From IMG/VR virus record IMGVR_UViG_3300033075_000545, positions 1-64,000 of that record: a stretch of DNA of 64,000 nucleotides; one strand, given 5' to 3'. Made by a program: the position numbers and the translations under genes. Origin of the DNA: a virus. Its lineage: Duplodnaviria > Caudoviricetes. The notes under the pieces were generated by a model, which saw only the letters and a program-made list of their open reading frames with translations, did no database searches and was not told where the DNA came from. This document shows positions 12,706-62,925 of the stretch, piece after piece; within the stretch, counting starts at the first letter, position 1; every line of letters begins with the position of its first letter.

Positions 12706-13656
12706 ATGGCTGAGTCCAGCGACAACCTTCTCGATGATTTCTTCGGACCGCTCAACCCGACGTGGGACCCAACTCCGTCGCGCCGCGTTATTACGGTCGC
12801 GACCTCGAAACTCTACGACGATCCTCTGTACGGCAAAACTCGAGGGGTCAAATACGACCAAGGTCTCACGGCATGGGTCAAACTGCCTCTGACTTCTGAA
12901 ACAACTGGTGCGCCTGTTACGATTGCGCTCGGAAACTATTCTTCGGCGCCGGTTGTGGATGTCCGCATCCGTGAGGCGTCTGGTGCCGACCCTCGCGTTT
13001 ATGAACCCGACGTTCCGGCTGAACTCGCGGATTCGGGTACTGCTGTTATGTTTGCAGTCCCACCCGAAGTCGCCAACATGTCGGGCGTGTTCCGAGCGCA
13101 GATCCGGGTCGTGGATGCACAGTCGATTGAAAAGACGCGCGACGAGTTCTGGATTTATGTGGATCGAGGGTTGTGGACTACTACTGGAGATATGCCACAA
13201 GATATCGGTCCGCCGACATTCTCCGAAGTTCGTACAGCGATGCGAGATCACCCTGTTGCTAACCGCCTATTGGCGGAATACGAGTTTGACCCCGCAGAAA
13301 TCGGTATGGCTGTTGTATCTGCGGTGCAGCGTTTTAACGGCGAGCTTCCGCCGCTGCCACGTCAGTTTCTAATGTCGACGATCAACCTCCCAGGGGCGTG
13401 GCGCCGGCAACTATTAAATGGTACCTTGTCGTATCTGTTTGAAACCGCTGCAACGTACTTCCGCCGGGGAGACCTTCCGTATAACTCGGGCGGCTTGGCA
13501 GTCAACGACCTGGCGAAGAATAAAGATTACCAACAAGCCATCGATCGGCTCCGGGAGGAGTTTTTGCGGTGGATTAAACTGACGCGGATGTCGATCAACC
13601 TGGCTGCGGCCCACGGCTCGGTAGGGTCTGGGTTTCCTGCCTTCCCCACGTATTGA
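12706..13656 (+). CDS. Putative head-tail adaptor/neck protein
   Basis: Position; helical C-terminal region with YNSGGLAVND typical of adaptors. Confidence 0.5.
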   Translation: MAESSDNLLDDFFGPLNPTWDPTPSRRVITVATSKLYDDPLYGKTRGVKYDQGLTAWVKLPLTSETTGAPVTIALGNYSSAPVVDVRIREASGADPRVYEPDVPAELADSGTAVMFAVPPEVANMSGVFRAQIRVVDAQSIEKTRDEFWIYVDRGLWTTTGDMPQDIGPPTFSEVRTAMRDHPVANRLLAEYEFDPAEIGMAVVSAVQRFNGELPPLPRQFLMSTINLPGAWRRQLLNGTLSYLFETAATYFRRGDLPYNSGGLAVNDLAKNKDYQQAIDRLREEFLRWIKLTRMSINLAAAHGSVGSGFPAFPTY

Positions 13657-13659
13657 CCT

Positions 13660-30800: not shown

Positions 30801-32414
30801 ATGGCAACTTTTGCAGAACTCGCCGGAGCAACCGACGCCGAGTTGGCTGAGGCTCGCACCGCAGTCTCAAACTACCTCGTGGCGAAGTTCCCTACGATTT
30901 CGGCCGTGAGCGGCCCAATCGCGGATCTCAACCTTGGCCCGTCTACGGACGCTCTTGCTGCAGTTGAGCATCGAGCCGCTCTTGTTGAATCGTCTTTAGA
31001 CCCAGCCGTTGGGTTGGCGTCGGGAAGTTACGATGCGGACGTCATGGCTGCGGCCCTCGCGGGATTGGGGGTAGTCCGGGGGGTCGCAGCCGTGGCAACA
31101 GGTACCGTTGCGTTGACGTTCACGACGTCAACACAACAAGCCGTAAATACCGGAGCTAGGTTTCACACAGCCGACGGTACTTACTACCGTACAACATCCG
31201 CCGTTCGATTCTTAAGTCCCGGTTCGACCGCGGTAAACGCTACAGACGTCGTGTTGGTTCAGGATCCGTCCAATCGATATGTTGGGGCTGTGCCTGTCAG
31301 TGCTGAAGATGCAGGAGCCGCAGGGAACCGAGTCGCAGGCGTTACACTGACTGTAGACACCACACTGTTGAATCTTTACTCTGCGGTTTTCGCTACAGAC
31401 GCTACAGGGGGTGCTGATGCAGAAACAGACGGAGAGCTCCTCGCACGACTCCCATCAGCGACCACTGCGCGCACTGCTGCCTCGTTTGCTGGTGCTGAAG
31501 GTACTGTGCGTAGTGCGTACGCGTTCTCAGATGTAAAGGTTATTGGGTACGGTCATGTGGGAATGTGTCGAGGACGTTCGGTACTGACAGGTCAAACACC
31601 CGGTCGTGTGGATGTTCGAGTACGTACCGCCACAGCTCCCACACGACAACGCGTGTCAGTAACGGCCACGTACATTGGGACGTATCTGGGGCAAACACAG
31701 TGGCGGTTCTCGTTAGCTATTGGAACGGCCCCAGGGTGGTTTGTGGTTGAGCGAGTTACGAAAGTCAACGCGAGCCTTACAACGGGTGGATACGCTCCGA
31801 CTGTTACACCTGGGTATGATCTTACTGGAGCAGATCCAGTACCCGACGTACGAAGTGTGCAGGACGCATTCCTATCTGAATATTGCACGGCGAGCGTAAC
31901 GTTTGTGGATCCTGATACGCCTGTTGGTAGTCTCGTGGTTAACGTATCCACCAAAGCGTACAACGCGTCCGTTCGTCAAATTCCAGGTATCGTAGCCGCA
32001 CAAACCGCTGTGGACGAGGACTCAGCACGGGCCGTCGGTGGTGATTGTTTAGTCCGCGGCGCGACGCCCGTGATGGTTGCGGTAACTGCTGTGGCCAGAG
32101 TACCTGCTTCAGTCACGTTAACTACCGCAGAACTCGCAAACGCCGTCGCCCGCGCGATAAACGAAACTTCCATTAATTCCACGCTGTACGGTTCTGTTGT
32201 CGGATCAAACGCGTTACTATATTTACCATCAGGCACAACACTACAGCTTTCGGGGTGGTCGGGAACCGTGTACAAGGGTAACGGGACAACCTCGTCGGTG
32301 TCAGGGACCTCGGATCTGGCGGTATCCACGGATTGGGTAAATGGTGTAGGTTCGGACGCTGTTGCGTTCTATTGTGACGATGCATCCGTTACTGCAACAG
32401 TAACAACCCTTTGA
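30801..32414 (+). CDS. Baseplate J-like protein
   Basis: ATGTVALTF, AEDAGAAGN, TGGADAETDGELLAR, GRVDVRV motifs. Confidence 0.75.
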   Translation: MATFAELAGATDAELAEARTAVSNYLVAKFPTISAVSGPIADLNLGPSTDALAAVEHRAALVESSLDPAVGLASGSYDADVMAAALAGLGVVRGVAAVATGTVALTFTTSTQQAVNTGARFHTADGTYYRTTSAVRFLSPGSTAVNATDVVLVQDPSNRYVGAVPVSAEDAGAAGNRVAGVTLTVDTTLLNLYSAVFATDATGGADAETDGELLARLPSATTARTAASFAGAEGTVRSAYAFSDVKVIGYGHVGMCRGRSVLTGQTPGRVDVRVRTATAPTRQRVSVTATYIGTYLGQTQWRFSLAIGTAPGWFVVERVTKVNASLTTGGYAPTVTPGYDLTGADPVPDVRSVQDAFLSEYCTASVTFVDPDTPVGSLVVNVSTKAYNASVRQIPGIVAAQTAVDEDSARAVGGDCLVRGATPVMVAVTAVARVPASVTLTTAELANAVARAINETSINSTLYGSVVGSNALLYLPSGTTLQLSGWSGTVYKGNGTTSSVSGTSDLAVSTDWVNGVGSDAVAFYCDDASVTATVTTL

Positions 32415-32427
32415 GAAAGGTAATTTC

Positions 32428-33237
32428 GTGGCTTTCAAAAATCTTGCACTGGCAGGGTGGCTGCTGTCCCTATCCACCCTGATTGGGTTTGCGAACGACG
32501 GACCTTTCGATCTTCCTGTAGCTCCGATCGTTACGCCGCCCGCTCCGAAGGTGTCCGAAGCTGTTGCCGGTGATCAACTCTGGGTCGTCAACGGTAAGAC
32601 AGATGCGGTTGTTCGAGACCACCCGAAAGGTCTCGTGAAGATTACCAAGGAAAATGGTCCGCTCCGTATCCGTGGGAAGTTTGCAGGTGGCACGCAGGTC
32701 GAGACCAAAACATTCCCTGGACCGTTCGTATTCATTGTGGAAGCTGTTCCGGGGGTGTCCGGAAAAGTCGACATCGACATCATTCCGCTCGGGTTCAAAG
32801 CTGAAACAGAAATTATCAGCCGGACCCTCAGCGTTAACAGTGGTACAGACCCTCCGCCGATAATCCCTCCGGTCACACCCACAGACCCACTCGTCGCCCT
32901 GTTTCAGACCGCTATTGACGGCGATCCCGATAGTGTTACAGCCAAGGATGGTACGGTTTATACGCGGTTGCAGTACGCGTCCAAGTTGGCCGCGCTGTAT
33001 GAGGGGGCTGCAAAGATTACCGTACCGACTGTGAAGACGTACGGAGAACTATTTGCAGATCTGAAGGCAGCGGCTGTGTTTCCTGAAACCACTATGCCGA
33101 AACTCAAGATCGCCGTAGGTACGTATCTTGACAGCAAGCTCGCCCCGACCACAAACAAAGCCATCGACAAAGCCGCGTGCGTCGCCGAGTTCAATAAGGT
33201 TGCTGCCACTCTCAAATCCTTGAAGGAGACAAAATAA
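32428..33237 (+). CDS. Exported protein with Pro-rich linker
   Basis: N-terminal signal peptide; DPPPIIPPVTPTDP linker; coupled (TAATG) to the protease gene. Confidence 0.6.
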   Translation: MAFKNLALAGWLLSLSTLIGFANDGPFDLPVAPIVTPPAPKVSEAVAGDQLWVVNGKTDAVVRDHPKGLVKITKENGPLRIRGKFAGGTQVETKTFPGPFVFIVEAVPGVSGKVDIDIIPLGFKAETEIISRTLSVNSGTDPPPIIPPVTPTDPLVALFQTAIDGDPDSVTAKDGTVYTRLQYASKLAALYEGAAKITVPTVKTYGELFADLKAAAVFPETTMPKLKIAVGTYLDSKLAPTTNKAIDKAACVAEFNKVAATLKSLKETK

Positions 33238-35462
33238 TGGCAGGTCCCACAGGCTTCATTGAGCCGGCAGATCGTACCCCCGCACAAGAGGCAGCGCACA
33301 ACGACGCCCTCTCGCGGATGGTGATGTTTTCGTTGCCGCCAGTTGTGACGGCCGGTCCGGTCAAGGTACTGTTGACTGACTTCCTGAAAGATCCAGATGT
33401 CGTTGCGGATATTGGCCGTGAGTTTGATGGCTTCCGGCAACTCACCGGGAGTTGCTTCCCTGCGGGAACGCCTGTTCGTATGGTCGACGGTACTGAGAAG
33501 TCTATTGAAAACGTTAAAGTCGATGATCGTGTGGTTACGCATGAAGGTCGTGCGCGGCGCGTAGTTGACACCATGCGGCGAGAATACACGGGTGAGATGG
33601 TTACGCTACATGTCAGCGGGTTCCCATTCCCAGTTGAGTCTACGGCAGACCATCAATTTGCCGTGTCGGTTGGCGGCGAAATTGAATGGAAGCCTGCAGG
33701 GGACATTCAGGAGGGCGACAAGGTTTTGATTGGTTGGAGCCAAACGTTTGCGTCTCCGAAGCCTTTGGACACTGCAGAGCTGCTTGGCGACGGCTGTATC
33801 ATTCTCGACGAACTAATGAAAGACGAGGCTTACACCAAGGGTAACGAACCCGATGTCCCGAACAGTAACATTAGTTCGGCACGTTATATGGTCAAACGGA
33901 GCGGGATTGATTGGCGTGGTCGCGTCCGATTACATAAGTCCCGGGTCGAGAATTCGATTTTTCGTAACGTCCCTATCTGTCCGTCATTCGGACGTTTGCT
34001 TGGCTTGTACCTGGCCGAAGGAGGGTGTCACGAAGGTCGTGTGACCTTTACGTTCCATATGAAAGAACGCGATACCCTGGCTGCGGAAGTATTGGCGCTT
34101 GTTCGTGGATTGTTCGGTGTTGAAGGTGAGCTTGAAATTCAGGAAGCGCATCCAAATCGTTGCGGAGTACGGTTTTCGAACCAAAATCTTGCAACAGTGC
34201 TGAAAGAGCTTGTTCCGGGTAACATCTATACAAAACGCGTCCCGGCCATCATTTTCGGAGCACCAGAGGAAGTACGTTTAGCTGTACTCCTCGGGTGGAT
34301 GGCTGGCGATGGTTACGTAGGCGTTAAAGGTGGAAGGCAACCAGGCAATATTCGGCTAACTGGCGTCTCTGTGTGTGCGGATCTCGCACGCGACATGACT
34401 ACATTAGCACTGTCTTGCGGCCTACGTGCTACGGCCGGACTTCGCAAAGCAAGAGGCGCGTCAAAGGTGTCTTATAGCGTTGATCTGGCAGGCAAAAAAG
34501 CTGTCAGCTTATTCCCTGCCGTCGCGCATCGAGCAACGGGTCCGACGTTTCGTGACAACGATGTGCTTCGAACAGCGAATGGGTACGCACGTAAGGTTCG
34601 AAAGATTACTTACCGAACCGTGGAGCACGTCTCTGTGTACGACTTTGAGGTGGAAGAAGATCACTCTTTCATCGCAGGCGGTCTAGTTGTACATAACTGT
34701 GTTGGCGCTGCGACAGGTAACGCATTGACCGTGCTCAGCGCCGTGCAGCGGAAGATCGCAGACAACCCCACCCAAGCCTTCGTAAATTTTTGGCCGTACG
34801 CATACGGACGTACGCGGTTTAATCAGGGCGACCGTAACCCTGGCGAGGGTGCAGTATCGTCGGTTATGGCAACAACGCTCGGTAACGACGGCGTTCTCGG
34901 TACCCACGAGCCGGGACTCCCAACGTTTACCCATGACGACGGTTACACGCTGACCAAGGCCATTGAAATGCAATGGTCCGATGGCGATTCCCCTACCGTT
35001 ACTCGGTGGTTGGACGCAGGACGGAAGCATACCGTTGGTAGTCGCGGACCCGTCTACACGGCGGAAGACGTGAAAACGGCTATCCTCAATGGTTACCCAG
35101 TACTCAACGGATGTGCGTATTTCGTCGACAACGGCAGCATTCGCGGAAGCGGCGATTCTGCCTATGTCCGCGGACGGTACGACTCGCGGGGTGGTCACGA
35201 AACAGGGTGGTTCGGGTATTGGGATCACCCGGATGACGGGCCGCTGTACCTGTATTGGAACCAATGGACGGCGTCGACGTACGGTAAGGATCCGGCTGGC
35301 GGTCCTCGATGTTCCGTGTGGGTGCCCGAATCCGAAGTTACTCGGATGATGAAAGCTGGATTTGGTGGAATCGTCCGTGGCGAAGCCTTTGCGATTTCGA
35401 ATCTCTCATGGTTTCCGGCACAGGCTGACAAAATCTTGAGCTTCACACAAGTGGGTGCGTAA
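33237..35462 (+). CDS. Papain-like (C1-type) cysteine protease containing an intein
   Basis: Spliced extein of 326 aa: RQLTGS|CVG catalytic Cys, GGHE His, YWNQW Asn. Confidence 0.8.
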   Translation: MAGPTGFIEPADRTPAQEAAHNDALSRMVMFSLPPVVTAGPVKVLLTDFLKDPDVVADIGREFDGFRQLTGSCFPAGTPVRMVDGTEKSIENVKVDDRVVTHEGRARRVVDTMRREYTGEMVTLHVSGFPFPVESTADHQFAVSVGGEIEWKPAGDIQEGDKVLIGWSQTFASPKPLDTAELLGDGCIILDELMKDEAYTKGNEPDVPNSNISSARYMVKRSGIDWRGRVRLHKSRVENSIFRNVPICPSFGRLLGLYLAEGGCHEGRVTFTFHMKERDTLAAEVLALVRGLFGVEGELEIQEAHPNRCGVRFSNQNLATVLKELVPGNIYTKRVPAIIFGAPEEVRLAVLLGWMAGDGYVGVKGGRQPGNIRLTGVSVCADLARDMTTLALSCGLRATAGLRKARGASKVSYSVDLAGKKAVSLFPAVAHRATGPTFRDNDVLRTANGYARKVRKITYRTVEHVSVYDFEVEEDHSFIAGGLVVHNCVGAATGNALTVLSAVQRKIADNPTQAFVNFWPYAYGRTRFNQGDRNPGEGAVSSVMATTLGNDGVLGTHEPGLPTFTHDDGYTLTKAIEMQWSDGDSPTVTRWLDAGRKHTVGSRGPVYTAEDVKTAILNGYPVLNGCAYFVDNGSIRGSGDSAYVRGRYDSRGGHETGWFGYWDHPDDGPLYLYWNQWTASTYGKDPAGGPRCSVWVPESEVTRMMKAGFGGIVRGEAFAISNLSWFPAQADKILSFTQVGA
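33453..34697 (+). mobile_element. Intein with LAGLIDADG homing endonuclease (415 aa)
   Basis: Starts CFPAGT; block B STADH; LLGLYLAEG and LLGWMAGDG; ends VYDFEV..VVHN|C. Confidence 0.9.
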
Positions 35463-36820: not shown

Positions 36821-37966
36821 ATGCCAAGCGCGTCCGACGTCTGTGGTAGTTTCTGGGGAACCGCGATCCTATCGGAGTTCGCGGACGCGTACGTATCAGC
36901 TAGTCGGGCATGCTTGGAGCACGCTACCAAGTATTCGCCCGGCTTCATTCGTGGTTGGACACTTCTCAGTACGGACCTGACGCTTGGGAGCGCCAATGGG
37001 CGTCCGACGTATGGGTATCCGCTTCCCCTCAACATCCCAACGATTGTCGCAGCCGATTTAGTTGGTGGTCGCGTTTTGATCCGGGATATCGATTTTTCCA
37101 TATCCAACAACACCATCTGGTTTAATGACGACCCTCTACTGTCGTGGGCCACAGTGAAGCGGTTCCAGTGGGTCTCTGGATCCCCAGTGTCTGCTGCGGA
37201 TCTCATCTACGTTGCAACAGATGACGCTGTTGAACCAAATACAGAATCCACGTACGAATCACTCATCAATGCAATCGTTACGTCCTGCGACTCCCCCGCA
37301 TCTGTTGGAGGCGAAACCGTAACGGATGTCTGGGCTGACGCTGATGGTACGTACCGTGTTATTACGGACAAGAGCGCGTATCTTCTGCCGTCCAGCGATA
37401 CTCCGTCGGTAGCCGTTGGTGCGGCGCTGAAAAAAGGTCAGCCTATTGGTTCCGCATGGATCCTAACGAAGCTTGGACCAGCCCTTCCTGATCTGAGTTA
37501 TCTAACCGTGCCAGCGGACTACCACCAGGGTGTAACGTCAGGCGGAGTGACGTGGTACAACGGCACGCGCAACCTCGTTGTGGATACAGTATCCTCTCGC
37601 ACTCGCGTTCGGTGGCCTTTAGGGGCTTCTGGCGGGGACTTCACGGCGTTCTGGACGGAGTCACACACAACGGGGATTGCGGGTTCTGTGAAGTCACTGG
37701 CGCAGGCTATGGACGTTCGAGCAAATCCTGTTGGCGATCCAGACGCAACAAGCCTTCCCACGACGGTAAACCCGCTACAGTTTGTTTGTCAGGAACTGTT
37801 CCAGGGCAACGCGTACTTGCTGATCGTCAATTCCGCCAAACTAGGTCCGAAGGCTACGTCTACTGCCGACCGTCAAGCTGCAACGGCCAAGGCAGTGGGG
37901 CCGTATGCAACCGTATTCGATTACACAGACACCATGCCATCAATCCCCGAGATCACGCCCACCTGA
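36821..37966 (+). CDS. Putative baseplate/tail protein
   Basis: 381 aa Thr/Gly/Val-rich; YRVITDK..Y..P..VAVG motif. Confidence 0.5.
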   Translation: MPSASDVCGSFWGTAILSEFADAYVSASRACLEHATKYSPGFIRGWTLLSTDLTLGSANGRPTYGYPLPLNIPTIVAADLVGGRVLIRDIDFSISNNTIWFNDDPLLSWATVKRFQWVSGSPVSAADLIYVATDDAVEPNTESTYESLINAIVTSCDSPASVGGETVTDVWADADGTYRVITDKSAYLLPSSDTPSVAVGAALKKGQPIGSAWILTKLGPALPDLSYLTVPADYHQGVTSGGVTWYNGTRNLVVDTVSSRTRVRWPLGASGGDFTAFWTESHTTGIAGSVKSLAQAMDVRANPVGDPDATSLPTTVNPLQFVCQELFQGNAYLLIVNSAKLGPKATSTADRQAATAKAVGPYATVFDYTDTMPSIPEITPT

Positions 37967-37968
37967 AT

Positions 37969-38193
37969 ATGAACGGAACAGACTGCATCATTCGCGCCAT
38001 CAAAAGCCACATTCCCGGCTCTCGTACTGAAGTTGCAGTCGAGAACGGAAAATACGTTGTGACCGTGACCAGCTCGAAGTTTGCGTCCCACTCACGATCC
38101 GACAACGAGGCACACGTTTACGGCGCTTTTGGGTCGCTCCCCTTACACCTGCTCGCTAAGATCATACAAATCAAAACAGTCGCACCCCGCTGA
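37969..38193 (+). CDS. BolA-like protein
   Basis: 74 aa from ATG 37969: AIKSHIPGSRTEV..YVVTVTSSKFASHSR..VYGAFG..IKTVAP matches the BolA pattern. Confidence 0.6.
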   Translation: MNGTDCIIRAIKSHIPGSRTEVAVENGKYVVTVTSSKFASHSRSDNEAHVYGAFGSLPLHLLAKIIQIKTVAPR

Positions 38194-38210
38194 AGCTTAG
38201 ACGGTGATAA

Positions 38211-38978
38211 ATGGCCGATCCGTGCGAAGATGTATGTCCGCCGGATGGTTGGCGGATGACCCCCGAATGGGTCAAAGGTACCGTCACATCTGTCGAGTGT
38301 TTTACTGGAACAGGAAGCGGAACGGGGACTGGTACAGGCTCCGACTGCTCGACACTGTTCCCAAACGAAGAATCACAACCTGACGGTCTAGATCCCGAGG
38401 TGGTGTACGACATTGGTCCGTGCGATGGATACGGAAACCAAATTATTACGTACGCCAAACTCCGAATTGTCTGTGATGCCTTGGCGCAAATTCCTCGGCT
38501 TCAAACTTACGACCTACGCAACGAACTTCAGTGTTGCACCCCGTGTGGAACGGGCACAGGTACAGGCACAGGTACAAGCACAGGTACAGGTATAGGCACG
38601 GAAACCGTGCCTGTGCCATCGTGTTGCGACGATACGATACCCGATGACATTTATATTATTTTCACTGCGGTTGGTGGATGTACGAACGCCGAAGATTTGG
38701 TCATTCACCTGGTGCGCGTTGGCGTTACGACAGTGTGGTCATATGCCGACAGCACTGGTGGGGCGGGGGGATGTACATTCATTACGCTAGCTTCGTTCAA
38801 TTGCGATGACGGTTCTCTACATGTCGTATTTGGCGCAGACAACGGTATGCTTGGTACACCAGTCACATACGAATGTGAGCCTCTTTTAGCAGTATACACG
38901 CTGACACCCATATCAGTTGAAGACACGACCTGTTGTATCGAAACAATTACCGTTGTGGTCTCGGAGACGCCGCCGTGA
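38211..38978 (+). CDS. Cys-rich acidic protein with Thr-Gly repeats (putative appendage/fibre tip)
   Basis: Several CC pairs; GTGSGTGTGTG and GTGTGTGTGTSTGTG tracts (ACAGGY hexamer repeats near 38551-38600). Confidence 0.6.
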   Translation: MADPCEDVCPPDGWRMTPEWVKGTVTSVECFTGTGSGTGTGTGSDCSTLFPNEESQPDGLDPEVVYDIGPCDGYGNQIITYAKLRIVCDALAQIPRLQTYDLRNELQCCTPCGTGTGTGTGTSTGTGIGTETVPVPSCCDDTIPDDIYIIFTAVGGCTNAEDLVIHLVRVGVTTVWSYADSTGGAGGCTFITLASFNCDDGSLHVVFGADNGMLGTPVTYECEPLLAVYTLTPISVEDTTCCIETITVVVSETPP

Positions 38979-40081
38979 GTGCAGTACAGGAAATTATTGC
39001 AAAAATTGCAGCCAAAGATAAGCGATATGCGGTACATCTCCGCGGCAAGACTACGAAACGACGAACACTTCCATGTCTTCATGAAGGTCCTGTAGTTGAG
39101 CCGTGTACAAGTTGTGCTGGAGAAATGCGACATGTTCGGTCGTGTTTTCACCCCAATGGCGTACGTGATAAATGCACACGTGGTGTTGTGGGTCCTGCAG
39201 TACAAGCATGCTCTGTCTGTTCGGATTACGAGGCGCCGCCTGTGAAGTGGGCGCCTCTTTATCACTCGTGGACAGGAGGCTCGTACTTAAAGCCTTGGGA
39301 GTACCCTGTCACTATTGGTATGGCCCACCTAAACACCATCGAGGAACTCAAGCTCTCAATTGCAATGTGGCGACATCAGACCATGCGTCCGTACTTCCAG
39401 ATTGTGGACACAGGGTCACACGAGTCCCTTATGCCGGAACTGGAAAAGCTCCGCGCCGAAGACGTCGAGATTCATTACGTACGGTCGCACGCATACCGTC
39501 ACTCCAGTGCTCCTGTATCAGTGGCACTGGATCTAATCCATGCACTGTGTCAAACGCAGTTTCTGTTCCACACGCACACAGATGTGTTTCCGTTTCGTAA
39601 GGATTTCATCGCGTGGCTCCAGGCCAAGTGCTCGGCGACACACCCTGTGGTCGGGTGGCAGATGTCCCCCCGAGCAACGTGTAAGTCAGGAGAGTGGAAG
39701 CAGGTAGTCAGTCACACAGCAACCATGGTTCACATGCCTACGGCCCGGAAGAACGGGCTCCAGTGGAACTTCGAACGGTATTACGACGAGCGGCCCCACG
39801 AGCGCGGTGACACCCGCGGATGGCCTGATACGGAAAGTCCGTTCTATCTGACCATGCAAAAAAGTGGGTTGTCTCCTGTATTACTGGGTACTGAGCCAAA
39901 CTACCAACTCCACCCGATTGCTGCGGAAGGTATTGAATGGGCTGTCCACGCGAGATCATACACGGGCCTGAAGATGGCCAGTGATGAGAACAATCCGTTG
40001 TGGGTGAACGCAAAGCGATATATGGAATGGACCCTGGCGCAAGCCCGGACACGTCTACAAGTTTGGAACGCGGAGGAATAA
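38975..40081 (+). CDS. GT-A/GT2-like glycosyltransferase with N-terminal Cys-rich domain
   Basis: VTIGMAHLN, QIVDTGS, FLFHTHTDVF (DxD-like); GTGA coupling to the upstream gene. Confidence 0.65.
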   Translation: MSAVQEIIAKIAAKDKRYAVHLRGKTTKRRTLPCLHEGPVVEPCTSCAGEMRHVRSCFHPNGVRDKCTRGVVGPAVQACSVCSDYEAPPVKWAPLYHSWTGGSYLKPWEYPVTIGMAHLNTIEELKLSIAMWRHQTMRPYFQIVDTGSHESLMPELEKLRAEDVEIHYVRSHAYRHSSAPVSVALDLIHALCQTQFLFHTHTDVFPFRKDFIAWLQAKCSATHPVVGWQMSPRATCKSGEWKQVVSHTATMVHMPTARKNGLQWNFERYYDERPHERGDTRGWPDTESPFYLTMQKSGLSPVLLGTEPNYQLHPIAAEGIEWAVHARSYTGLKMASDENNPLWVNAKRYMEWTLAQARTRLQVWNAEE

Positions 40082-40082
40082 T

Positions 40083-40637
40083 ATGCCCGAGCCAAAGACC
40101 GCAATTCAAGCCTACGACCTGCTAATCGATTATCACAACGACCCCGCCATTCTCACCGTCGTGATTCCTGGGACGATCACGTGGGGGGACGTCGGAGAGG
40201 ACACGGGACCTGGAATTCTTCAGGGGATCACAACCTTCCTCAGGACGAGAAGGGAGTGGTCCGTCATTGAGATCTCCAAGGTTGGGAACGGCTATATCAC
40301 AATCACACGTGACCCCAACAAGAAACAACAGCTTCCATCATTAGGGATCCAAGCGTGGAACCTGACGAAGTTCAAGCTCGGATCCATTATCCACGGTAAG
40401 CGATTGGTTTCGTTGGAGGTTCTTCAAGAAAGACTGTCGTACTGTTGGCTATGTCCATACCGTACGAACTCTCAATGCACTCGTTGTGGGTGTTACCTCG
40501 ATCGGGTCCCAGACGACGCCATTGTCGACGCAGGGAAACCCGGAAAGGCTGCGTATGAACGAGAGTCCTGTCCAATGGGTGCCTGGGGACCCAGTCCATC
40601 TCCGGTGCGTGAGGAGGGGTCTGGGCGACGTGTTTAA
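40083..40637 (+). CDS. Methyltransferase-remnant plus Cys-rich (DUF6171-like) protein
   Basis: TWGDVGEDTGPGIL..FL..EWSV..NG resembles the C-terminal half of Methyltransf_24; RLSYCWLC..CTRCGC..CPMGAW. Confidence 0.45.
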   Translation: MPEPKTAIQAYDLLIDYHNDPAILTVVIPGTITWGDVGEDTGPGILQGITTFLRTRREWSVIEISKVGNGYITITRDPNKKQQLPSLGIQAWNLTKFKLGSIIHGKRLVSLEVLQERLSYCWLCPYRTNSQCTRCGCYLDRVPDDAIVDAGKPGKAAYERESCPMGAWGPSPSPVREEGSGRRV

Positions 40638-41541
40638 CATGACGGGTTTGGTACGGGATCTGTACCTGCGGAACAACGTTTGTCAAATCACGGTCTCGGG
40701 CGCCCACGAAGAAAAGGTATTTGGGCACAACGGCTTCCACGACGTCAGCGGCTACGCGGACGTCGTGACCGCCCCGCCCCCAGGGGTGGCGGTAGTCAAT
40801 ATTGACTACAAGCCGACCATCGACCGTTCCGTTACGGACAAGTCCGCAAGGTACTGCGAAGCCGGCCACGACAGTTTCGAGGAGCAGACTGGGGCCACGA
40901 TTAACCGAAATCCAATACCCAAACCCGACTTCCCGTTCAACCTGTTCAGTCACCACGAACCGTTCTCCCGTGCAAAGAACGATTACGATTACGGGGTAGT
41001 TGCGTGCGGCATTAAGCCGGACATGCGCCTCAAGCAGTGGCCCGTAGATTACTTCCAGCGCGTAGTGGACGAGGTCCCGATCGACTGGAAGCAGGTCGGA
41101 TTGCTACACGACGGGCGATTCGCACACGACCAGACGATGTTGTTTAATTGCAGTTGTCTGTTAGGGAAGACGAACTTTAAGCAACTCTGTGCTGTGATTC
41201 GACATGCTCGGGTCGTTGTGTGTCACGTGTCACTGCCGATGTTAATTGCGATGTCGTGTGGCACTCCATGCGTAGCAATCATGGGGGGTCGGGAGGACCC
41301 GTGGCTATTCGACGACGTTCGGTCGCTTAAAGTTCTTCACACGATTGGAGAGTTGGATTGTTGTAAGTCGTATGGGTGCCGTCGGTGTAGCCCAATTAAG
41401 GGACACGCGGACACTCCTTTTCCTCCGAACTGGTTGTGCGAGTTACCGGTCCATGTCGGCGGGAGTGACGTAGGAAAGTGTATGGAATTGATAACGCCAG
41501 AAACAGTAATCGCAGCAGTAAACGCACAACTGTCCCGATAA
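40555..41541 (+). CDS. GT9 family (ADP-heptose-type) glycosyltransferase
   Basis: GLGDV, KQWP, LLGKTNFKQLCAVIRHA, PMLIA..GTPCVAIMGG, CMELITPETV. Confidence 0.75.
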   Translation: MNESPVQWVPGDPVHLRCVRRGLGDVFNMTGLVRDLYLRNNVCQITVSGAHEEKVFGHNGFHDVSGYADVVTAPPPGVAVVNIDYKPTIDRSVTDKSARYCEAGHDSFEEQTGATINRNPIPKPDFPFNLFSHHEPFSRAKNDYDYGVVACGIKPDMRLKQWPVDYFQRVVDEVPIDWKQVGLLHDGRFAHDQTMLFNCSCLLGKTNFKQLCAVIRHARVVVCHVSLPMLIAMSCGTPCVAIMGGREDPWLFDDVRSLKVLHTIGELDCCKSYGCRRCSPIKGHADTPFPPNWLCELPVHVGGSDVGKCMELITPETVIAAVNAQLSR

Positions 41542-41635: not shown

Positions 41636-42886
41636 ATGTTGCAAGAAACTCCGTTGGCGCAACTGAAGCAGGACGTTTGGGATGCATGCATGTCGGAGAC
41701 GGTGCCGATCATTTGGGGACCTCCGGGGGTCGGCAAGACCGAGATGGTCAAGTCGATCGGGAAAGACCACAGGATCCCCGTTTACATCATCATCGGTTCG
41801 CTGTGCGACCCCACAGACATCAACGGTTTCCCAGTGGTGTCCACGACGATCAAGGACGCGTCTGGAGAGGAACACAAGAGTATCGAGTTTGCCCCACGCA
41901 GTTTCCTGCGGGAGATCCAGAACAAGCACGACGGACGAGCCATCGTCTTCTGGGACGAGCTCACGACAACACCGCCGGCTACGCAGGCCGCGGGCCTGAC
42001 GACCATCCAAACGAAGAGGTTCGGCGACTTTCAGATGGATGCGAAGAAACTGTTGTTCATCGCAGCAGCGAACAAGACGGAGCACGCCGCGAACGGCCAG
42101 GAGCTGGCCCTGCCGATGAAGAACCGTTTGGTCCACCTGGACTTTCCTGTCAACGAGATGTCAGCCAAAGAATGGGCGGCGCAGTTCCCGATCTATTGGG
42201 GTCGGGAACCCGATGTCGGTATGGACGGTCACGAGATCGCGAAAGACGTTATGCGGCGGGCACGCACGATGGTGTCTGGGTTCATCGTGCGCCATCCGTC
42301 GCTGTGGTTCAAGATGCCAAAGGATCCGGAGGGGGTGAACGGGTATCCGACGCCGCGGTCGTGGGACGCGGTCTCTCGGTTCTTGGGCCTTGCGTACCAC
42401 CGAAACGGGTACAAGACGGGCTCGGAGTTTTCGATCGCACGTTTGGTGAGCGGTGCGGTCGGCGAGGCTGGTGTTGAGTTCATGACGTACGTGAGGGAGT
42501 CAAACATCCCCGACCCGGAAGATGTGATTCGTACCGCTGCGACCTGGGAACCGTCGGACCGATCGGACATCAACTTCGTGGTGCTGACGGGTGTCGTGGC
42601 TGCGGTGCAGGGCCGTCCGACTCCGGATCGGTTGATGGCAGGGCTGATGGTGTGTAACAGGGTTGCGGCACGCCGCGGTAAGAGTGGTGTGGCCTCGTAT
42701 GAGGCTTCGGCGATCCCAGCCATCCGCTTGGCACAACTCGTCAACACCGACGAGCGGTTGGACAAGTTCGCGAAAGACCACAAGATGAGCCGCGACGCTC
42801 TCGCGAAGTTGTCGATCGAGGCCGGCAAACTGCTGAAACCTTACCTCGGGATGCAAACGAAGATGCTGGAGGCGGTGACGAGCTGA
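41636..42886 (+). CDS. MoxR-like AAA+ ATPase
   Basis: Walker A GPPGVGKT; Walker B IVFWDE; AAAN; arginine finger KNRLVH; TPRSW. Confidence 0.85.
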   Translation: MLQETPLAQLKQDVWDACMSETVPIIWGPPGVGKTEMVKSIGKDHRIPVYIIIGSLCDPTDINGFPVVSTTIKDASGEEHKSIEFAPRSFLREIQNKHDGRAIVFWDELTTTPPATQAAGLTTIQTKRFGDFQMDAKKLLFIAAANKTEHAANGQELALPMKNRLVHLDFPVNEMSAKEWAAQFPIYWGREPDVGMDGHEIAKDVMRRARTMVSGFIVRHPSLWFKMPKDPEGVNGYPTPRSWDAVSRFLGLAYHRNGYKTGSEFSIARLVSGAVGEAGVEFMTYVRESNIPDPEDVIRTAATWEPSDRSDINFVVLTGVVAAVQGRPTPDRLMAGLMVCNRVAARRGKSGVASYEASAIPAIRLAQLVNTDERLDKFAKDHKMSRDALAKLSIEAGKLLKPYLGMQTKMLEAVTS

Positions 42887-42899
42887 TAATTTGGGTTGC

Positions 42900-42930
42900 G
42901 GTACCCACCGACAGCGGTGGGTATCCTTTT
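42900..42930 (+). terminator. Probable terminator/attenuator hairpin
   Basis: GGTACCCACCG-acag-CGGTGGGTATC followed by CTTTT. Confidence 0.55.
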
Positions 42931-42953
42931 ATTCATCGATCAGAGGGTCTGGT

Positions 42954-44402
42954 ATGTCGATGGTAAGTGGGATCGCGACGAAGACGATTGATGACCCGGA
43001 AGCCATGGATAAGCTTGTGGCAGCGAAGACGATCGTGACGGCTTCGTGGCCCTATCTGCACAGCCTGATGTGGCAGTTGGCGGCTCGGTGGACGGATCAG
43101 GTTCCGACTATAGGCGTTGATGATAAGTGGCGTCTGTACTTGAATCCAAGTTGGGTTAAGACACAACACGCGGGAACTCTCGCGCTGATTATTGCCGGCC
43201 ACGAGCTTCAGCACCTGTTCGGGGAACACAGTCGACGGTTAACGGAGCACCAAGACAAGTTCGTTGTCAATGTGCAGGGGTGCCCCTGTTCGTTGTCCAA
43301 CTTGGCGCACGATTTGGCCATCAACAGCGCTCTCCAATCATTCTTGGATAGCGCAAAGCTCTATCGTGAGTCACAGGGGTACACACCTTTTCCAATGAAG
43401 GTGTCCGAAGAAATTGCAGAGGGCGCATACCCCAACAAGTACATGGACAGCAATGGTCGTCCGTTTCCGACAGGTCTGATTTCCGAAGATTACGCGGATC
43501 TGTTGATCCGACACGCCAAGCCCACACCTCAGTGTGGTAAAGCCAACAGCCGCGCCAAAGGCAAGGGCAAGGACAAGGACAAAGGCAAGGGTAACGACGA
43601 CGGTGATGGTGAAGGGAAGGGCAACGGAGCAGGTGATGGCAACCGTCCGCATGCAGCATCAGGACGGTGTGGATCGGGGGGTGGAGGTCCTCCTGAAGAC
43701 TACGAGGACCGCAGTCCTGTGGATCCCACGGATCAAACGTCTGGGACGTGTCGGGAAGAACAGGAAATCATTCGGAAGAAGGTGGCCCAGGAGATCATCG
43801 AGCAGGATAAGAAAGCGCGGGGAACAGTTCCCGCTGGGCTCCGATTGTTGGCGGAGAAGTATTTCATCCCCAGCAAGGTAAACTGGGTTGAGCTTCTCAA
43901 AGGCGCCATTCGGTCTGCTGTAAATAAAGTCGCGGGCCAGCACGACTTCACTTACACGAGGTTGAACAAACGGCAGGAGGACCACCAGGTTCGAATGCCT
44001 ACGTTGTTTGCCCCTGCGCCTAAGGTGATGGTTGCTCTGGATACATCCGGTTCGATGGGTAAGAAGGACTATGAGCTCGCGTTTGGACACATCCACGGCG
44101 TCATGCGAAGCTTGGGATTCACGAAAATCCCCGTCTTCTGTTGTGATGCACGAGCCGGAGATGTCCAGTGGATCTCAAGCCTCAAGGATCTAGAACTTGA
44201 AGGCGGCGGCGGGACGGACATGTCCGCTGCAATCGACCAAGCAGCAAAACTGAAGCACTCGAAGCTTCTGATTGTTCTTACCGACGGTGAGACAGGGTGG
44301 CCCGCGCATAAGATTAAGTCAATGGACGTAGTTGCGTGCCTCACCAGGAAGCCGCATTGCGATCCGCCGCCTTCATGGATTAGGACAATTATCCAAGAGT
44401 AA
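42954..44402 (+). CDS. DUF2201-like metallopeptidase-VWA protein
   Basis: HELQH (HExxH); DLAIN; DTSGSM MIDAS; GGGGTD; LTDG. Confidence 0.8.
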   Translation: MSMVSGIATKTIDDPEAMDKLVAAKTIVTASWPYLHSLMWQLAARWTDQVPTIGVDDKWRLYLNPSWVKTQHAGTLALIIAGHELQHLFGEHSRRLTEHQDKFVVNVQGCPCSLSNLAHDLAINSALQSFLDSAKLYRESQGYTPFPMKVSEEIAEGAYPNKYMDSNGRPFPTGLISEDYADLLIRHAKPTPQCGKANSRAKGKGKDKDKGKGNDDGDGEGKGNGAGDGNRPHAASGRCGSGGGGPPEDYEDRSPVDPTDQTSGTCREEQEIIRKKVAQEIIEQDKKARGTVPAGLRLLAEKYFIPSKVNWVELLKGAIRSAVNKVAGQHDFTYTRLNKRQEDHQVRMPTLFAPAPKVMVALDTSGSMGKKDYELAFGHIHGVMRSLGFTKIPVFCCDARAGDVQWISSLKDLELEGGGGTDMSAAIDQAAKLKHSKLLIVLTDGETGWPAHKIKSMDVVACLTRKPHCDPPPSWIRTIIQE

Positions 44403-53305: not shown

Positions 53306-56300
53306 ATGTCTCAGCAAATTGAGGCACGGCTGTCGTCCAATTCGCCACATGCCGGGCTCAACTTTGTCCAGCGTCGTTCTGTGATCTCGAAGCGTGACGG
53401 TACTGTCCTCTACGACTTGTCCGTAATCGCGCCAGAAAACTGGTCCCAGACCGCAGTGGACATGATCGCGCAGAAGTACCTCCGTAAGGCAGGCGTACCA
53501 GACAAAACCACTGCCATCACTGAAGAGAAAGTTCCCGAATGGTTGTGGCGCAGAACCGGAGCCCCAGACGCCAAATACGATCGGGAGACGGACTCCCGCC
53601 AGGTGTTCCACCGCATCGCAGGGTGCTGGACATATTGGGGTTGGAAGTTGGGGTATTTCCTCGACGAAGCGCAGGCCAAGAATTACTACGACGAAATCGT
53701 TTTCATGTTGGCCAATCAGATGATGGCCCCCAACAGCCCACAGTGGTTCAACACCGGGTTGAACTACGCGTACGGTATCACAGGCGACGACCGAGGTATG
53801 TGGGGTTTGTACGGGGACGACGTGAAAGCAATCGACGACGCTTACAGTCGGCCTGCGTCTGGAGCGTGTTTCATCCAAACTTTGGATGATACACTAGTCG
53901 GCCCTAACGGTATCACGGACTTTATCGAACGGGAAGCTCGGATCTTCTCGAATGGTGCCGGGAGCGGTGCCAACTACAGCGAGCTCCGTGGCGCCGGCGA
54001 ACCGTTATCTGGTGGTGGTACGTCTTCTGGTCTGTTGAGTTTTCTAAAACCCATCGATGCATCTGCTGGGGCCATTAAAAGTGGGGGAACGTGCCTCGCC
54101 CCTGATACCCGCGTGTTCACGGACCGGGGTGTAGTCCCAGTTTCTGAGTTGGAAGCTTCCGGAGAACGATTCGTATGCTTGAGTTACGATCCCCCTGCGG
54201 GGCGGTACAAAGCAAAGTGGGCTGAAGCGTTCAAGTCCGGACGAAAAATGGTGGTGTTGGTAAAGACCGACAAGGGAGAATTCCGAGTCAGTCACGATCA
54301 CCCGATGCGGTTAGCTTGTGGTGAGTACGCACAAGCAGTAGATCTAGTTGCTGGACAACGCCTGTTCGCGTGTCACGTCGCTAATCGCAACGGCTACTTG
54401 CGTGTTTCGTTGCGTACCGGAAAACGTGGAGGGGGGAGTCGTTACTGGCACCGTCTGATTGGTGAAGACGTTCTTGGTGCGTCGCGTGAGATGGTCGTTG
54501 ACCACGCTGACGACAACAAGCACAACAATCTCATTACTAACTTGGAGTTAAAATCGTCATCGGACCACGCACGACGTCACGGTAGGGCTTTGGCTGCTGT
54601 GGGTAATCATGTATTCCAACAGCGGAAGTTTCCCAAATGTGGTGCGTCTAATCCCATGGCGTCGGGTGCCGCGTTTTGGACCGACACCGTAAAGGTCGCA
54701 TCTTACAAAGCAAAGCAAGCGGACCGTATTCAAGGGCGCGCCGAGGGTATGGCGTTGCTCTCGTCCCGCCAGAAGATGTTGAACTACGCTTGGAAGTGCT
54801 TGAACGCCGGTCAGGTCATTGACAGTTTTTCGGACTACGTGAAAGCGCGCGAGGTCGTTTGCGGACGGATCGGTTGCAAGAAGACTCTCTTGCGAACCAT
54901 TGAGAGTAGGTTCGGTTCATACGCGGAGTTTCTTCGGGAGGTGAATAGTAACAATCACCGAGTCGTGTCTGTTACAGAAGTCGGGGAGATGGACGTTTAC
55001 GATGTCCAAGTGGATTGTCCCACGACCGACGAAAAGGTCCCGGAGAGTGGTCACAACTTTGTGATTTGGTCGGGAGACAATCCCGAGGGCTCTGGTGTCG
55101 CAGTTCACAACACTCGCAGGGCCGCACGTATGGTTGTGCTGGATGTGGACCATCCAGACATCGAAGACTTCATTGGGTGGAAAGCCCGCGAGGAAAAGAA
55201 AGTCGCAGCTCTGGTTGCCGGATCTCGACTGGTCAAACGGAACGTAGACGCGGTGTACAAAGAGAAGGATCCCACCCGTCAGAAGAAGCTAATCGCCAAA
55301 GCGGTCAAGGAGGGTGTTCCTTATGGAACTCTCAAGGCCGTTAAACTTGCCGCGCAGCACGGACAACCATGTCCGCAGGTCGACGAGTTTGACACGGATT
55401 ACGAAAAGGAGGCGTACCAAACCGTGTCTGGACAAAACGCAAACAACTCAGTTCGTATCAGCGATAAGTTCATGGAAGCCGTTCTGGGCGACCGGGAGTG
55501 GCACCTTTACTATCGGACTGAGCTTCGAAAAGCCAAGAAGGAACGTCGCACACCTAAGCCGTGTAAGTCACTCAATGCGCGTGACTTATGGACGAAAATT
55601 GCTCGAGCCTCTTGGGAGTGTGCTGATCCTGGGGTTCAGTTCGACGACGCGGTCAACGACTGGAATCCCGTCATCAATGACTCTAGGATCCGTGCGACTA
55701 ACCCTTGTTGTTTCGTCGGAGAAACGATAGTTGATACGTCAGAGGGGAAGCTGCGGATCGACGAGCTGGTCGCAATGTGTGACCGTGGTGAAATCCTTCC
55801 GTACGCTTTTGGTCACGACCGTGGATCGAAGTCTCTCGCGTTGAAGCCCATCAAACGGGCTTGGTGCGCGGGCCGCACGAGGACCTTGGTACGTGTTACC
55901 ACGGACAAGGGTGTTCAGTTCACGTGCACCCCGGAGCACAAGGTCCTGACATTTAATGGCGATTACATTGAAGCCCAGAATCTTGCCGTAGGAACAAGTC
56001 TCCGCAAGATCCCGAGACACGTGAACGTACGGCGTTCCGGTCGCGTGATGGTTACGGACTCCAAGGCGGGTACTCCGAACGGTACGCAGTACCAGAACAT
56101 TTGGATGTGGGAGAAGGTAAACGGCCCCATCCCGGAAAATATGGAGGTCCATCACAAAAACGACGATCCGGCTGACGACCGCGTCAGTAATTTTGAGCTC
56201 GTCGATCGCATCGAGCACCGGAAGTATCACAGTGCCGGGGAGAACAACCCCAGGTTCCTGGACGTGGACGAATCGTTGCTCGTCGAGGCTTACGAAACAC

Positions 56301-61338: not shown

Positions 61339-62925
61339 ATGAAAAACCGCGTACTCGTTTACGGAGACGTCATGTTGGACGTCTCCGTTTTTCGTTCTAC
61401 ATATCCCACCACCCAAGAAGACCACACCGTTCCAATCTACCCAAAGTACGATCTATCCCAAGACGTGTGCGTCGCTGGTGGCGCGGGTAACCTTGCAGCA
61501 AACTTGGCTACGTTGGGTTGCGATGTGACCCTGGCATGCCACCCCGCAGGTGACGCAGAGTGGGTGGCAGTTGAAGCGCATCTCAAATCTTTAGGGGTCA
61601 AGTTCTACTACCTCGACACCGTTCTCAGAACCACGGTCAAGTGTCGGTACTACGTCGGTGATCGTTTAGTTGCTCGGGTGGATGACAACTACAAGGTCAC
61701 GTCGGTGGACAAAGTTAACGTGGCCCGAGACCTTTCCAACCAGTTCGACGCAGTTGTCATCACGGATTACGGCAAAGGGTCCATTGAGACTGTGGAAGAT
61801 GCGCACTTTTGGGCGTCGCTGTGTCCCAAAAAGTTTGCTGACCCCAAAAAGGGGAGAACTTCTCTGTGGGCGGATGTGAAACTTACCACGTTCGTGATGA
61901 ACTGGGAGGAGGCGTCCGGTTCGTTCAAATACGACGGATCGAATTTCGATAAGCGGATATCGTCCGACGTTGATGCAGGAAAACTCGCAGACAGGGTAGC
62001 CGCAGCATATTCGGCCAATTCAGTAATTGTTAAACGAGGCAAGTACGGATCGACTCTTACGTGGGCGAACCACGGCTCATCAGGCAACCGCACAGGGTTG
62101 CCTGTGACGATCCCGCCGTTCATTGTCAATCACGCTCGGGATGTGCAGGGGGCTGGAGACACGTATCTTGCGGGATACGTCTGCGCAGATCTCCGCGGGT
62201 TGTCGACAGCAGAAGCATGCGCTTTTGCATCGGCTGCTGCGGGAGTGGCTGTCTCGAAGGCAGGAACTGCCACAGTGACTCTGGACGAGGTTACTACGGT
62301 TGTAGCTCCGTATTTTGTCGGCAGTGATAAGGAGGCTGCGGTTTACTCGAATGGATCGCTGAACGCGTTGGCGAGGTACGTCATGAAGTGCCAGGCAATT
62401 GGGCTAACCGTGGGTTACACCAACGGGTGCTTTGATGCGCGGCTCCACGCCGGGCATAGGTTTACAATTGGCCAGTCGGCTAAGGGGTGCGACGTCTTGA
62501 TTGTGGGAGTGGACTCTGACGCACGAGTGCGTAAACTCAAGGGGGATACAAGACCCATCCACGGTGAGTGGGAGCGGGCTTTAGCTATTGCCTCCCTCCG
62601 CGGCGTTCACGCAGTACTGATTTTTGATTTGGATCCGGCTGAAATCCTCGCGGCCCTAAAACCCGATTTTCTGTTTAAGGGTGGGGACTACGTTAGGGAG
62701 ACGATGCCAGAGATCTCTGCATCTGGGTGGGCCGGAACGTTCGTGAACATTGGGACCGTGGTCTGCGAGCAAACTACGACGTTTATCGAGCGCATCAAAG
62801 AAGAGGCCCAACCATGCGATCGGTTATCGCCTACGCAACTTCTGACTCCCACTTTCCCGAACGCGCCGGTGGAGGATCCTGGGTCAATGTCCCAGAAGTT
62901 CGCGGAGACGCCCTCCACACACTAA
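61339..62925 (+). CDS. hldE: Bifunctional heptose 7-phosphate kinase / heptose 1-phosphate adenylyltransferase
   Basis: PfkB domain VLVYGDVMLD, GGAGNLAANL, DYGKG, DVQGAGDT; nucleotidyltransferase TNGCFD..HAGH, DSD..VRKLKG..RPI, KGGDY. Confidence 0.85.
   Translation: MKNRVLVYGDVMLDVSVFRSTYPTTQEDHTVPIYPKYDLSQDVCVAGGAGNLAANLATLGCDVTLACHPAGDAEWVAVEAHLKSLGVKFYYLDTVLRTTVKCRYYVGDRLVARVDDNYKVTSVDKVNVARDLSNQFDAVVITDYGKGSIETVEDAHFWASLCPKKFADPKKGRTSLWADVKLTTFVMNWEEASGSFKYDGSNFDKRISSDVDAGKLADRVAAAYSANSVIVKRGKYGSTLTWANHGSSGNRTGLPVTIPPFIVNHARDVQGAGDTYLAGYVCADLRGLSTAEACAFASAAAGVAVSKAGTATVTLDEVTTVVAPYFVGSDKEAAVYSNGSLNALARYVMKCQAIGLTVGYTNGCFDARLHAGHRFTIGQSAKGCDVLIVGVDSDARVRKLKGDTRPIHGEWERALAIASLRGVHAVLIFDLDPAEILAALKPDFLFKGGDYVRETMPEISASGWAGTFVNIGTVVCEQTTTFIERIKEEAQPCDRLSPTQLLTPTFPNAPVEDPGSMSQKFAETPSTH

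Follow-up and report, generated by a model that had tools for sequence, protein, structure and literature searches.

The end of the tail operon of a large uncultured phage may encode a module that attaches heptose to threonine-rich linkers of its own tail appendages, a reading that is favoured here although its chance is put slightly below even. The module lies in the first 64 kb (64,000 nucleotides, hereafter the window) of IMGVR_UViG_3300033075_000545, a linear viral contig of 129,973 bp that is about 65% complete by estimate. It comprises a GT9-like enzyme of the heptosyltransferase fold, which carries four invariant cysteines (Cys4), a GT-A fold glycosyltransferase, a Cys-rich protein with two Thr-Gly tracts and, farther downstream, a bifunctional HldE enzyme of ADP-heptose synthesis. 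The O-heptosylation would take place in the cytoplasm, with the module being expressed together with the tail-appendage genes. This reading is preferred because one idea fits the fold of the GT9-like enzyme, a Cys cluster like that of the autotransporter heptosyltransferase TibC, co-expression with structural genes, the confinement of Thr-rich tracts to neighbouring proteins, the position by fibre genes and the synthesis of the sugar donor by the phage.

For this module we infer a donor, an acceptor, an order of steps and a benefit. The isomerase and phosphatase steps of the heptose supply would come from the host. The GT9-like enzyme would move heptose from ADP-heptose to Ser/Thr hydroxyls in the Thr-rich tracts of the Cys-rich protein encoded at 38211-38978 and its partners, with Asp25 as the presumed catalytic base, and its Cys4 cluster, as a metal finger, could aid oligomerisation or substrate binding in the manner of TibC. 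The GT-A enzyme would attach a second sugar. The product would be a mucin-like glycan sleeve on tail-fibre linkers, which could provide stiffness, protease resistance or surface masking. A soluble cytoplasmic enzyme suits a phage, since virions assemble in the cytoplasm.

Folds and conserved residues of the two transferases

As modelled, the GT9-like protein is a true heptosyltransferase-fold enzyme. PF01075 matches it with 30.1 bits (cut-off 22), although only at profile positions 117-210 of 247, which belong to the C-terminal, donor-binding half, and matches its relatives with up to 46 bits. The structure model, which is built on 11 homologs and has a predicted local distance difference test score (pLDDT) of 79, gives VIA Z values of 20.4 with the Veillonella GT9 protein 3tov, 18.8 with TibC, 18.0 with WaaC and 17.9 with WaaF. 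The chloroplast GT9-like NDH subunit follows with 15, and all other GT-B enzymes reach at most 10.7. Superposition on 3tov, WaaC and WaaF has a root-mean-square deviation (rmsd) of 3.3-4.0 over 246-270 residues, and superposition on residues 65-389 of TibC has an rmsd of 3.5 over 272 residues. The GT9 identity, which an earlier reading made from the DNA letters alone (the sequence-only reading) had proposed, is therefore borne out by both the profile match and the fold group. The N-terminal R-x-G-x-G-D strand is kept in all eleven family members, and the gene starts at 40555 or 40579, since a later start would lose this strand; the gene overlaps the preceding one by up to 83 nt.

Conservation in the GT9-like enzyme is described by 25 sequences, which belong to two clades at about 30% identity. 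G24-D25, K154, D156, K160, G244-G245 and E247 are invariant in all 25, R246 is found in 24, and C269, C275, C295 and C309 are also invariant in the whole set. G24-D25 and K160 align to the G-D and P-A-K-R-W-P motifs of WaaF and are counterparts of Asp13 and Lys192 of WaaC, which we take to be its N-terminal catalytic Asp and its donor-site Lys, respectively. The stretch with the four cysteines, which follows the last strand and precedes the C-terminal helix, has a pLDDT of 60-64, and their reading as a TibC-type metal finger is a lead from the model, not a result. The modelled N-lobe is small and has three strands. By sequence, the enzyme is not a member of the bacterial autotransporter heptosyltransferases (BAHT), to which TibC belongs. 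Its NCBIfam matches are to lipopolysaccharide (LPS) heptosyltransferase models only, with II, III and RfaQ among the sequence-level matches, and a profile search of PDB sequences with the GT9-like family does not retrieve TibC.

The GT-A enzyme adopts its fold from residue 105 on. Its AlphaFold model has a pLDDT of 83 overall and above 90 at residues 105-368, and Foldseek retrieves SpsA, TarP, PcManGT and ColGalT1 with E values of about 1e-8 and probability 1.00. Residues D145, H201, D203, D285 and E287 are invariant. The sequence-only reading had called this protein a GT2-like transferase, which agrees with the GT-A fold of the model and with the PF00535 domain carried by 10 of its 85 homologs, while a Pfam search that included PF00535 gives no match for the window protein itself. 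The start also had to be moved: the gene begins with GTG at 38975 and not at 38933, with a GTGA overlap with the preceding stop, and the database gene call likewise gives 368 aa.

Thr-rich tracts, anchor family and gene neighbourhood

The candidate acceptor, which contains 6.7% Cys, has its Thr-Gly tracts at aa 32-44 (nt 38304-38342) and aa 113-130 (nt 38547-38600), in agreement with the sequence-only description of a Cys-rich protein with such tracts. They are the sole TG or poly-Thr tracts among the 118 open reading frames (ORFs) of the 130-kb contig that were surveyed for low-complexity tracts. The first tract has mixed codons; the second arises from a tandem repeat with a 12-nt unit (38553-38599; 3.2 copies, 92% matches), and slippage could therefore alter its length. 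Among 5.8 billion proteins, no homolog of the candidate acceptor with a similar length is found, and the ESM Atlas gives nothing usable. Weak similarities are seen to a poly-Thr/Cys-rich protein of 731 aa that occupies the corresponding position in the closest relative (E 0.007; shared N-terminal motif PC-x3-CP-x-PD-W), and to a Cys-rich protein in IMGVR_UViG_3300031623_000011 (L024; E 0.14).

The closest relative is IMGVR_UViG_3300020577_014401 (L002), of 110 kb, in which the gene order is kept as anchor, BolA-like, Cys-rich low-complexity, GT-A, multidomain Cys-rich/GT9-like, GT9-like, AAA and VWA; synteny in this close clade rests on the two phages. The relative has 14 T6 tracts, of which five are in the anchor fusion and nine in the next protein. 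Thr-rich tracts of both phages are thus found only in proteins directly upstream of the transferases and in no other ORF of either contig.

The anchor module, which might be the carrier of the glycosylated protein or its partner, has no match in Pfam and PHROG searches, and its family comprises 495 representative clusters in an exhaustive HMMER search. Long members (among proteins P0098-P0247) append receptor-binding-type or tailspike-type modules. In P0181, a poly-Thr stretch of about 200 aa precedes a GH136-like beta-helix (PDB 5gqc/7v6m, E ~1e-15), and P0117 has an added FN3 domain. These C-terminal modules are identified by PDB sequence search only; Pfam gives no match for the long members. 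The ortholog in the relative (L002:2042-4072), with 36% identity, is fused to its five T6 tracts and to Cys-rich modules. Because long members carry poly-Thr and tailspike-type additions, Thr-rich tracts appear to be recurrent on tail appendages built on this type of anchor. As an observation in its own right, this large and unannotated family, which lies outside Pfam and PHROG, acts like an N-terminal anchor for varied tail-appendage tips.

A distant clade of 49 distinct GT9-like genes, at about 30% identity, is recovered from viral and metagenomic scans, mostly in aquatic phage contigs of 100-235 kb; the metagenome scan with the GT9 profile yields almost exclusively this clade and short contigs. 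A GT-A domain is fused to the GT9-like domain in 33 of the 49 and is encoded by the next gene in 9 more, so that 42 are paired. Where at least 3.5 kb of upstream DNA is available (21 loci), a collagen-like ORF precedes the GT9-like gene in 13, and matches to many PHROG families confirm that one of these ORFs encodes a tail fibre. The idea of a single orthologous GT-A partner across the window, the relative and the distant fusion was dropped, as hhalign detects no relation. A protein of 491 aa encoded elsewhere in the contig, at 90109-91584 (L001:5110-6585), contains a G-G-L-G-D motif and matches the donor-binding region of GT9 over a short stretch. Pfam and NCBIfam give no match for it, and hhalign to the GT9 profile gives a probability of 4%. 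It adjoins a SAM (S-adenosylmethionine) methyltransferase (Methyltransf_23, L001:4191-5153) and a portal-like gene, and a 41% identical copy is present in the relative. It could conceivably be a second heptosyltransferase, directed at head proteins.

All genes of the sequence-only reading sit where it had placed them (Table 1) and are tightly packed, with neighbours that abut or overlap on one strand; every cluster gene from 36821 to 41541, as well as that of HldE, is on the + strand. The proposed setting at the end of the tail operon agrees with the baseplate wedge gene upstream, from which the cluster is separated by a protease cassette. A promoter and terminator scan gives results no better than those for shuffled sequence.

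Table 1. Positions of the cluster genes, their neighbours and HldE in the window.
Feature	Position	Strand	Basis or remark
Baseplate wedge gene	30801-32414	+	phrog_6; upstream of cluster
Putative tail-appendage anchor module, 381 aa	36821-37966	+	Family search
BolA-like small protein (plausible), 74 aa	37969-38193	+	Homology to a protein of the relative with a sub-threshold PF01722 match
Cys-rich protein with two Thr-Gly tracts, 255 aa	38211-38978	+	Composition; candidate glycan acceptor
GT-A fold glycosyltransferase, 368 aa, with Cys-rich N-terminal extension	38975-40081	+	AlphaFold model and Foldseek
Cys-rich protein, 184 aa	40083-40637	+	Alignment to multidomain protein of the relative
GT9-like heptosyltransferase-fold enzyme, 328 aa, with Cys4 cluster	40555-41541	+	PF01075 and modelled fold
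MoxR-type AAA ATPase	41636-42886	+	Directly downstream of GT9-like gene
DUF2201 metallopeptidase/VWA protein	42891-44402	+	After MoxR-type AAA ATPase
Bifunctional HldE (heptose-7-phosphate kinase and heptose-1-phosphate adenylyltransferase)	61339-62925	+	NF008454

Two small proteins of the cluster fit their first descriptions in part. The one called BolA-like has no Pfam match itself, while its same-sized positional ortholog (L002:4095-4319), to which it is homologous (phmmer 7.7e-6), reaches 24.6 bits with PF01722 BolA, below the cut-off of 25.7; the BolA-like identity is plausible at this sub-threshold level. The 184-aa protein, described as a methyltransferase remnant rich in Cys, is indeed Cys-rich and has weak matches over a C-x2-C motif to DUF6171 (E 0.023) and phrog_13558 (1.5e-6). 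No methyltransferase match is found for it, or for the related 625-aa protein of the relative, in Pfam, NCBIfam and PDB sequence searches, and hhalign of these proteins against the Methyltransf_23 protein of the phage itself is negative. It aligns with 31% identity to residues 167-340 of the 625-aa protein (L002:8097-9974), which is GT9-like in its own C-terminal part (hhalign probability 85%), and is possibly a truncated relic of a larger multidomain enzyme.

Cys-rich segments, which are probably metal-binding, are found in the GT-A enzyme (38975-39280), the 184-aa protein (40380-40600) and the GT9-like enzyme (41359-41481), with the BolA-like gene among them. The presence of such a segment in each of three neighbouring proteins, together with the BolA-like gene, hints at a common metal or redox requirement. 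The pair formed by the MoxR-type AAA ATPase and the DUF2201/VWA protein (41636-44402), which lies directly 3' of the GT9-like gene, is kept in the relative. In the rest of the window, the papain-like protease gene (33237-35462) carries a LAGLIDADG intein, and the class II ribonucleotide reductase gene (53306-58309) has intein and HNH endonuclease insertions.

ADP-heptose supply and competing explanations

HldE, which the sequence-only reading had recognised, is full-length and bifunctional, and both active-site motifs are intact. NF008454 matches it at residues 2-488 with 190.8 bits against an equivalog cut-off of 521, and the domain models TIGR02198 and TIGR02199 give 123.7 (cut-off 345) and 103.8 bits (cut-off 181.5), while the next-best families reach at most 37 bits. 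It is considered a divergent member because all these scores are below the equivalog cut-offs. Both PfkB (PF00294) and CTP_transf_like (PF01467) match, and the motifs D-V-Q-G-A-G-D (D268-D274) and H-x-G-H (H370-H373) are shared with the copy in the relative, which is 40% identical and adjoins SbcD as in this phage. The gene is 20 kb from the transferase cluster, within a replication and nucleotide block by the ribonucleotide reductase and SbcCD genes. GmhA/SIS, cupin and HAD-IIIA proteins were searched for in the contig and none was found.

A second link to heptose comes from L024, where a four-gene block on the minus strand (12958-14929) encodes an RfaE-I kinase, a HAD-IIIA phosphatase, a Cupin_2 protein and an RfaE-II adenylyltransferase, at 1-4 kb from a GT9-GT-A fusion gene on the opposite strand. 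The cupin may stand in for GmhA as sedoheptulose-7-phosphate isomerase, in which case the phage would have a complete pathway to ADP-heptose of its own. A link between the GT9-like family and heptose-nucleotide synthesis is thus supported, at the level of gene content, in two independent phage lineages (three phages), and is not general. As to the host, 9 of 11 genomic homologs of the GT-A gene are in Gemmataceae, Planctomycetaceae or Schlesneria metagenome-assembled genomes (MAGs), and the host is probably a planctomycete. Five of these MAGs have GmhA-like genes and HldE-sized RfaE matches (four with 312-320 bits, one weaker), so the phage HldE would supplement the heptose pathway of the host and not create it.

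Several observations weigh against O-heptosylation of the tail appendages. The D-S-G motif, which contacts heptose in the LPS enzymes, is replaced in the GT9-like family, by H-V-S in the near clade and by G/P-V/I-T in the distant one, which makes ADP-heptose less certain as donor. An HldE-like gene is present in 3 of 23 GT9-bearing viral records and PF01075 in 3 of 18 HldE-bearing records, most of them fragments, and none of the four complete HldE-bearing phages has PF01075. The N-terminal beta-barrel of TibC is absent in the GT9-like model, in which 13 residues precede the first N-lobe strand and the alignment begins at TibC residues 64-65. The NCBIfam autotransporter-heptosyltransferase models do not match the GT9-like protein, and its Cys4 cluster is placed at the iron-finger stretch of TibC by aligned ranges and spacing and not by residue-level superposition. 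The GT-A genes of this phage, the relative and the distant clade are non-orthologous by hhalign. The Thr-rich tracts can be plain linkers, and the proposed acceptor is an orphan protein whose virion membership is only presumed. In addition, glycosyltransferases and rfaE in tail-fibre regions of aquatic myophages are read as altering the host O-chain (PMC7029224).

Some of the earlier proposals consequently stand in part. ADP-heptose made by the phage for the GT9-like enzyme is consistent with the intact HldE and with the genomic linkage, while the linkage is not universal and the D-S-G motif is lost. The co-occurrence of hldE with the cluster, which had been put forward as a check, is seen in the closest relative, which keeps HldE, and in the RfaE block of L024, but in few of the other contigs; the argument from co-distribution is weakened because phages that lack HldE could draw on host ADP-heptose. 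Circumstantial support for a Thr-rich target on a virion appendage comes from the confinement of the tracts to neighbours, from the anchor family and, in the distant clade, from the adjacent collagen-like fibres.

The same genes could serve to remodel the host envelope during infection, by modification of the LPS core, the O-chain or another surface glycan, which could bar superinfection or stop progeny from adsorbing to debris, the tail-fibre region being a variable island for host interaction. This explanation is considered unlikely, although clearly the most probable of those set against appendage heptosylation. It agrees with the LPS heptosyltransferases II, III and RfaQ as sequence matches, with WaaC and WaaF, which fit the fold nearly as well as TibC, and with heptose-bearing envelope glycans, which probably exist since the putative host clade has the heptose pathway. 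It also follows the interpretation of the tail-fibre hypervariable region of pelagimyophages and cyanomyophages, where glycosyltransferases and rfaE are found (PMC7029224), yet this published interpretation is itself untested. Temperate phages are those that typically bring about LPS seroconversion, and no search for lysogeny genes was made here. Moreover, the N-lobe, which would have to bind Kdo2-lipid A, resembles the LPS enzymes in sequence at the G-D motif only, and neither the invariant Cys4 finger nor the confinement of the Thr-rich tracts to neighbours is explained by a host target.

The GT9-like enzyme might instead use another nucleotide sugar and act on a small molecule, a lipid-linked glycan or a non-virion protein, with HldE and the cluster being functionally unrelated. 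The distance of 20 kb between them, their joint presence in a minority of contigs, the loss of the heptose-contacting motif and the exchange of the GT-A partner for a non-orthologous one between relatives would all fit such a situation. It is judged quite improbable: all solved structures with a known donor in the top, well-separated fold group use ADP-heptose, and two independent lineages tie the GT9-like family to heptose-nucleotide genes. Least probable is the glycosylation of phage DNA with heptose-containing glycans against restriction, for which there are precedents in phage clusters that add mono- or di-heptose to 5-hydroxymethylcytosine by means of GT-B enzymes and phage-encoded sugar-nucleotide genes (bioRxiv 10.1101/2023.12.21.572611), and with which the location of HldE in the replication and nucleotide block is compatible. 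The reported DNA heptosyltransferase is similar to T4 beta-GT (bioRxiv 10.1101/2023.12.21.572611), whereas the present enzyme groups with GT9 proteins and TibC, and the transferase genes are in a structural operon, apart from the DNA-metabolism genes. No Tet/JBP dioxygenase or thymidylate-synthase-type hydroxymethylase is found in the assembled 130 kb, about 65% of the genome, although the Tet_JBP null does not show absence because this search matched 0 of 14 control genomes.

Comparison with known systems

Beyond this phage, it is conceivable, though more doubtful than O-heptosylation in the phage itself, that large phages infecting planctomycetes and further bacteria of aquatic habitats possess a dedicated cytoplasmic O-heptosylation machine, which would be a widespread and so far unrecognised form of virion glycosylation. 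Its parts would be a GT9 enzyme that resembles BAHT members and bears a Cys4 metal finger, an often-fused GT-A partner and sometimes an ADP-heptose pathway of its own, and it would produce mucin-like or collagen-type glycan sleeves on tail-fibre linkers. Phage HldE/rfaE, phage GT9 genes, virion glycosylation and protein heptosylation are each already known. The combination is new, as are the Cys4 GT9-like family with its fixed GT-A partner and the tie to Thr-rich and collagen-like tail proteins. Should the module indeed add heptose to tail appendages, protein O-heptosylation, which is known from enterobacterial adhesins, would reach viruses, and a function could be assigned to a large conserved GT9-GT-A family found in environmental phages. 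What Thr-rich and collagen-like segments of fibres contribute to adsorption, stability and evasion of immunity or defence could then be tested directly. The two enzymes would also be a compact soluble kit for the glyco-engineering of repetitive proteins in E. coli, which itself makes ADP-heptose.

Among the characterised enzymes, BAHT members (TibC and AAH; PDB 4RAP/4RB4) are soluble cytoplasmic GT-B-type proteins that use ADP-heptose to place heptose on Ser residues in a protein with repeats. TibC and the GT9-like enzyme have in common the fold, an early catalytic Asp in the N-lobe, a reduced N-lobe and, as judged from aligned ranges and spacing, four Cys before the C-terminal helix. The TibC N-lobe is likewise small, with three strands, and the enzyme depends on its iron finger, built by Cys339, Cys342, Cys358 and Cys370, to oligomerise and to bind substrate (PMC4358343); the cysteines are spaced C-x2-C-x15-C-x11-C in TibC and C-x5-C-x19-C-x13-C in the GT9-like enzyme. 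Unlike BAHT members, the GT9-like enzyme lacks the N-terminal beta-barrel, which in TibC is formed by residues 1-97, has no sequence-level match to them, is encoded by a phage and is paired with a GT-A enzyme. The substrate of BAHT enzymes is a beta-helix passenger domain, while that of the phage enzyme would be Thr-rich low-complexity tracts.

The LPS GT9 enzymes (WaaC, WaaF and WaaQ; PDB 2H1H, 1PSW and 3TOV) share with the phage enzyme a PF01075 match above threshold, Z values of 17.7-20.4 and the aligned G-D and Lys. The phage enzyme differs from them by the replaced D-S-G motif, a much shorter N-lobe, the Cys4 insertion and the location of its gene in a phage structural operon.

Experiments have demonstrated glycosylated virions in mycobacteriophages. 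Glycosyltransferases from the tail-fibre regions of aquatic phages are commonly presumed to change the surface of the host. Freeman et al. reportedly found in 2023 that mycobacteriophage glycosyltransferases modify structural proteins of the phage itself, with glycans at the C-termini of capsid and tail-tube subunits. The presumed likeness is that phage glycosyltransferases act on proteins of their own virion in the cytoplasm, before or during assembly. In contrast to the mycobacteriophages, the present system would modify internal Thr-rich linkers of tail appendages, presumably with heptose, and includes a phage sugar-nucleotide enzyme. Pelagimyophages and cyanomyophages are also large aquatic phages whose tail-fibre genes are interspersed with or close to genes for glycosyltransferases and rfaE; these genes, among which GT8 dominates, are read as modifying the host O-chain (PMC7029224). 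The phage described here differs from these in having a Cys4 GT9-like family with a fixed GT-A partner, which is encoded adjacent to Thr-rich or collagen-like proteins.

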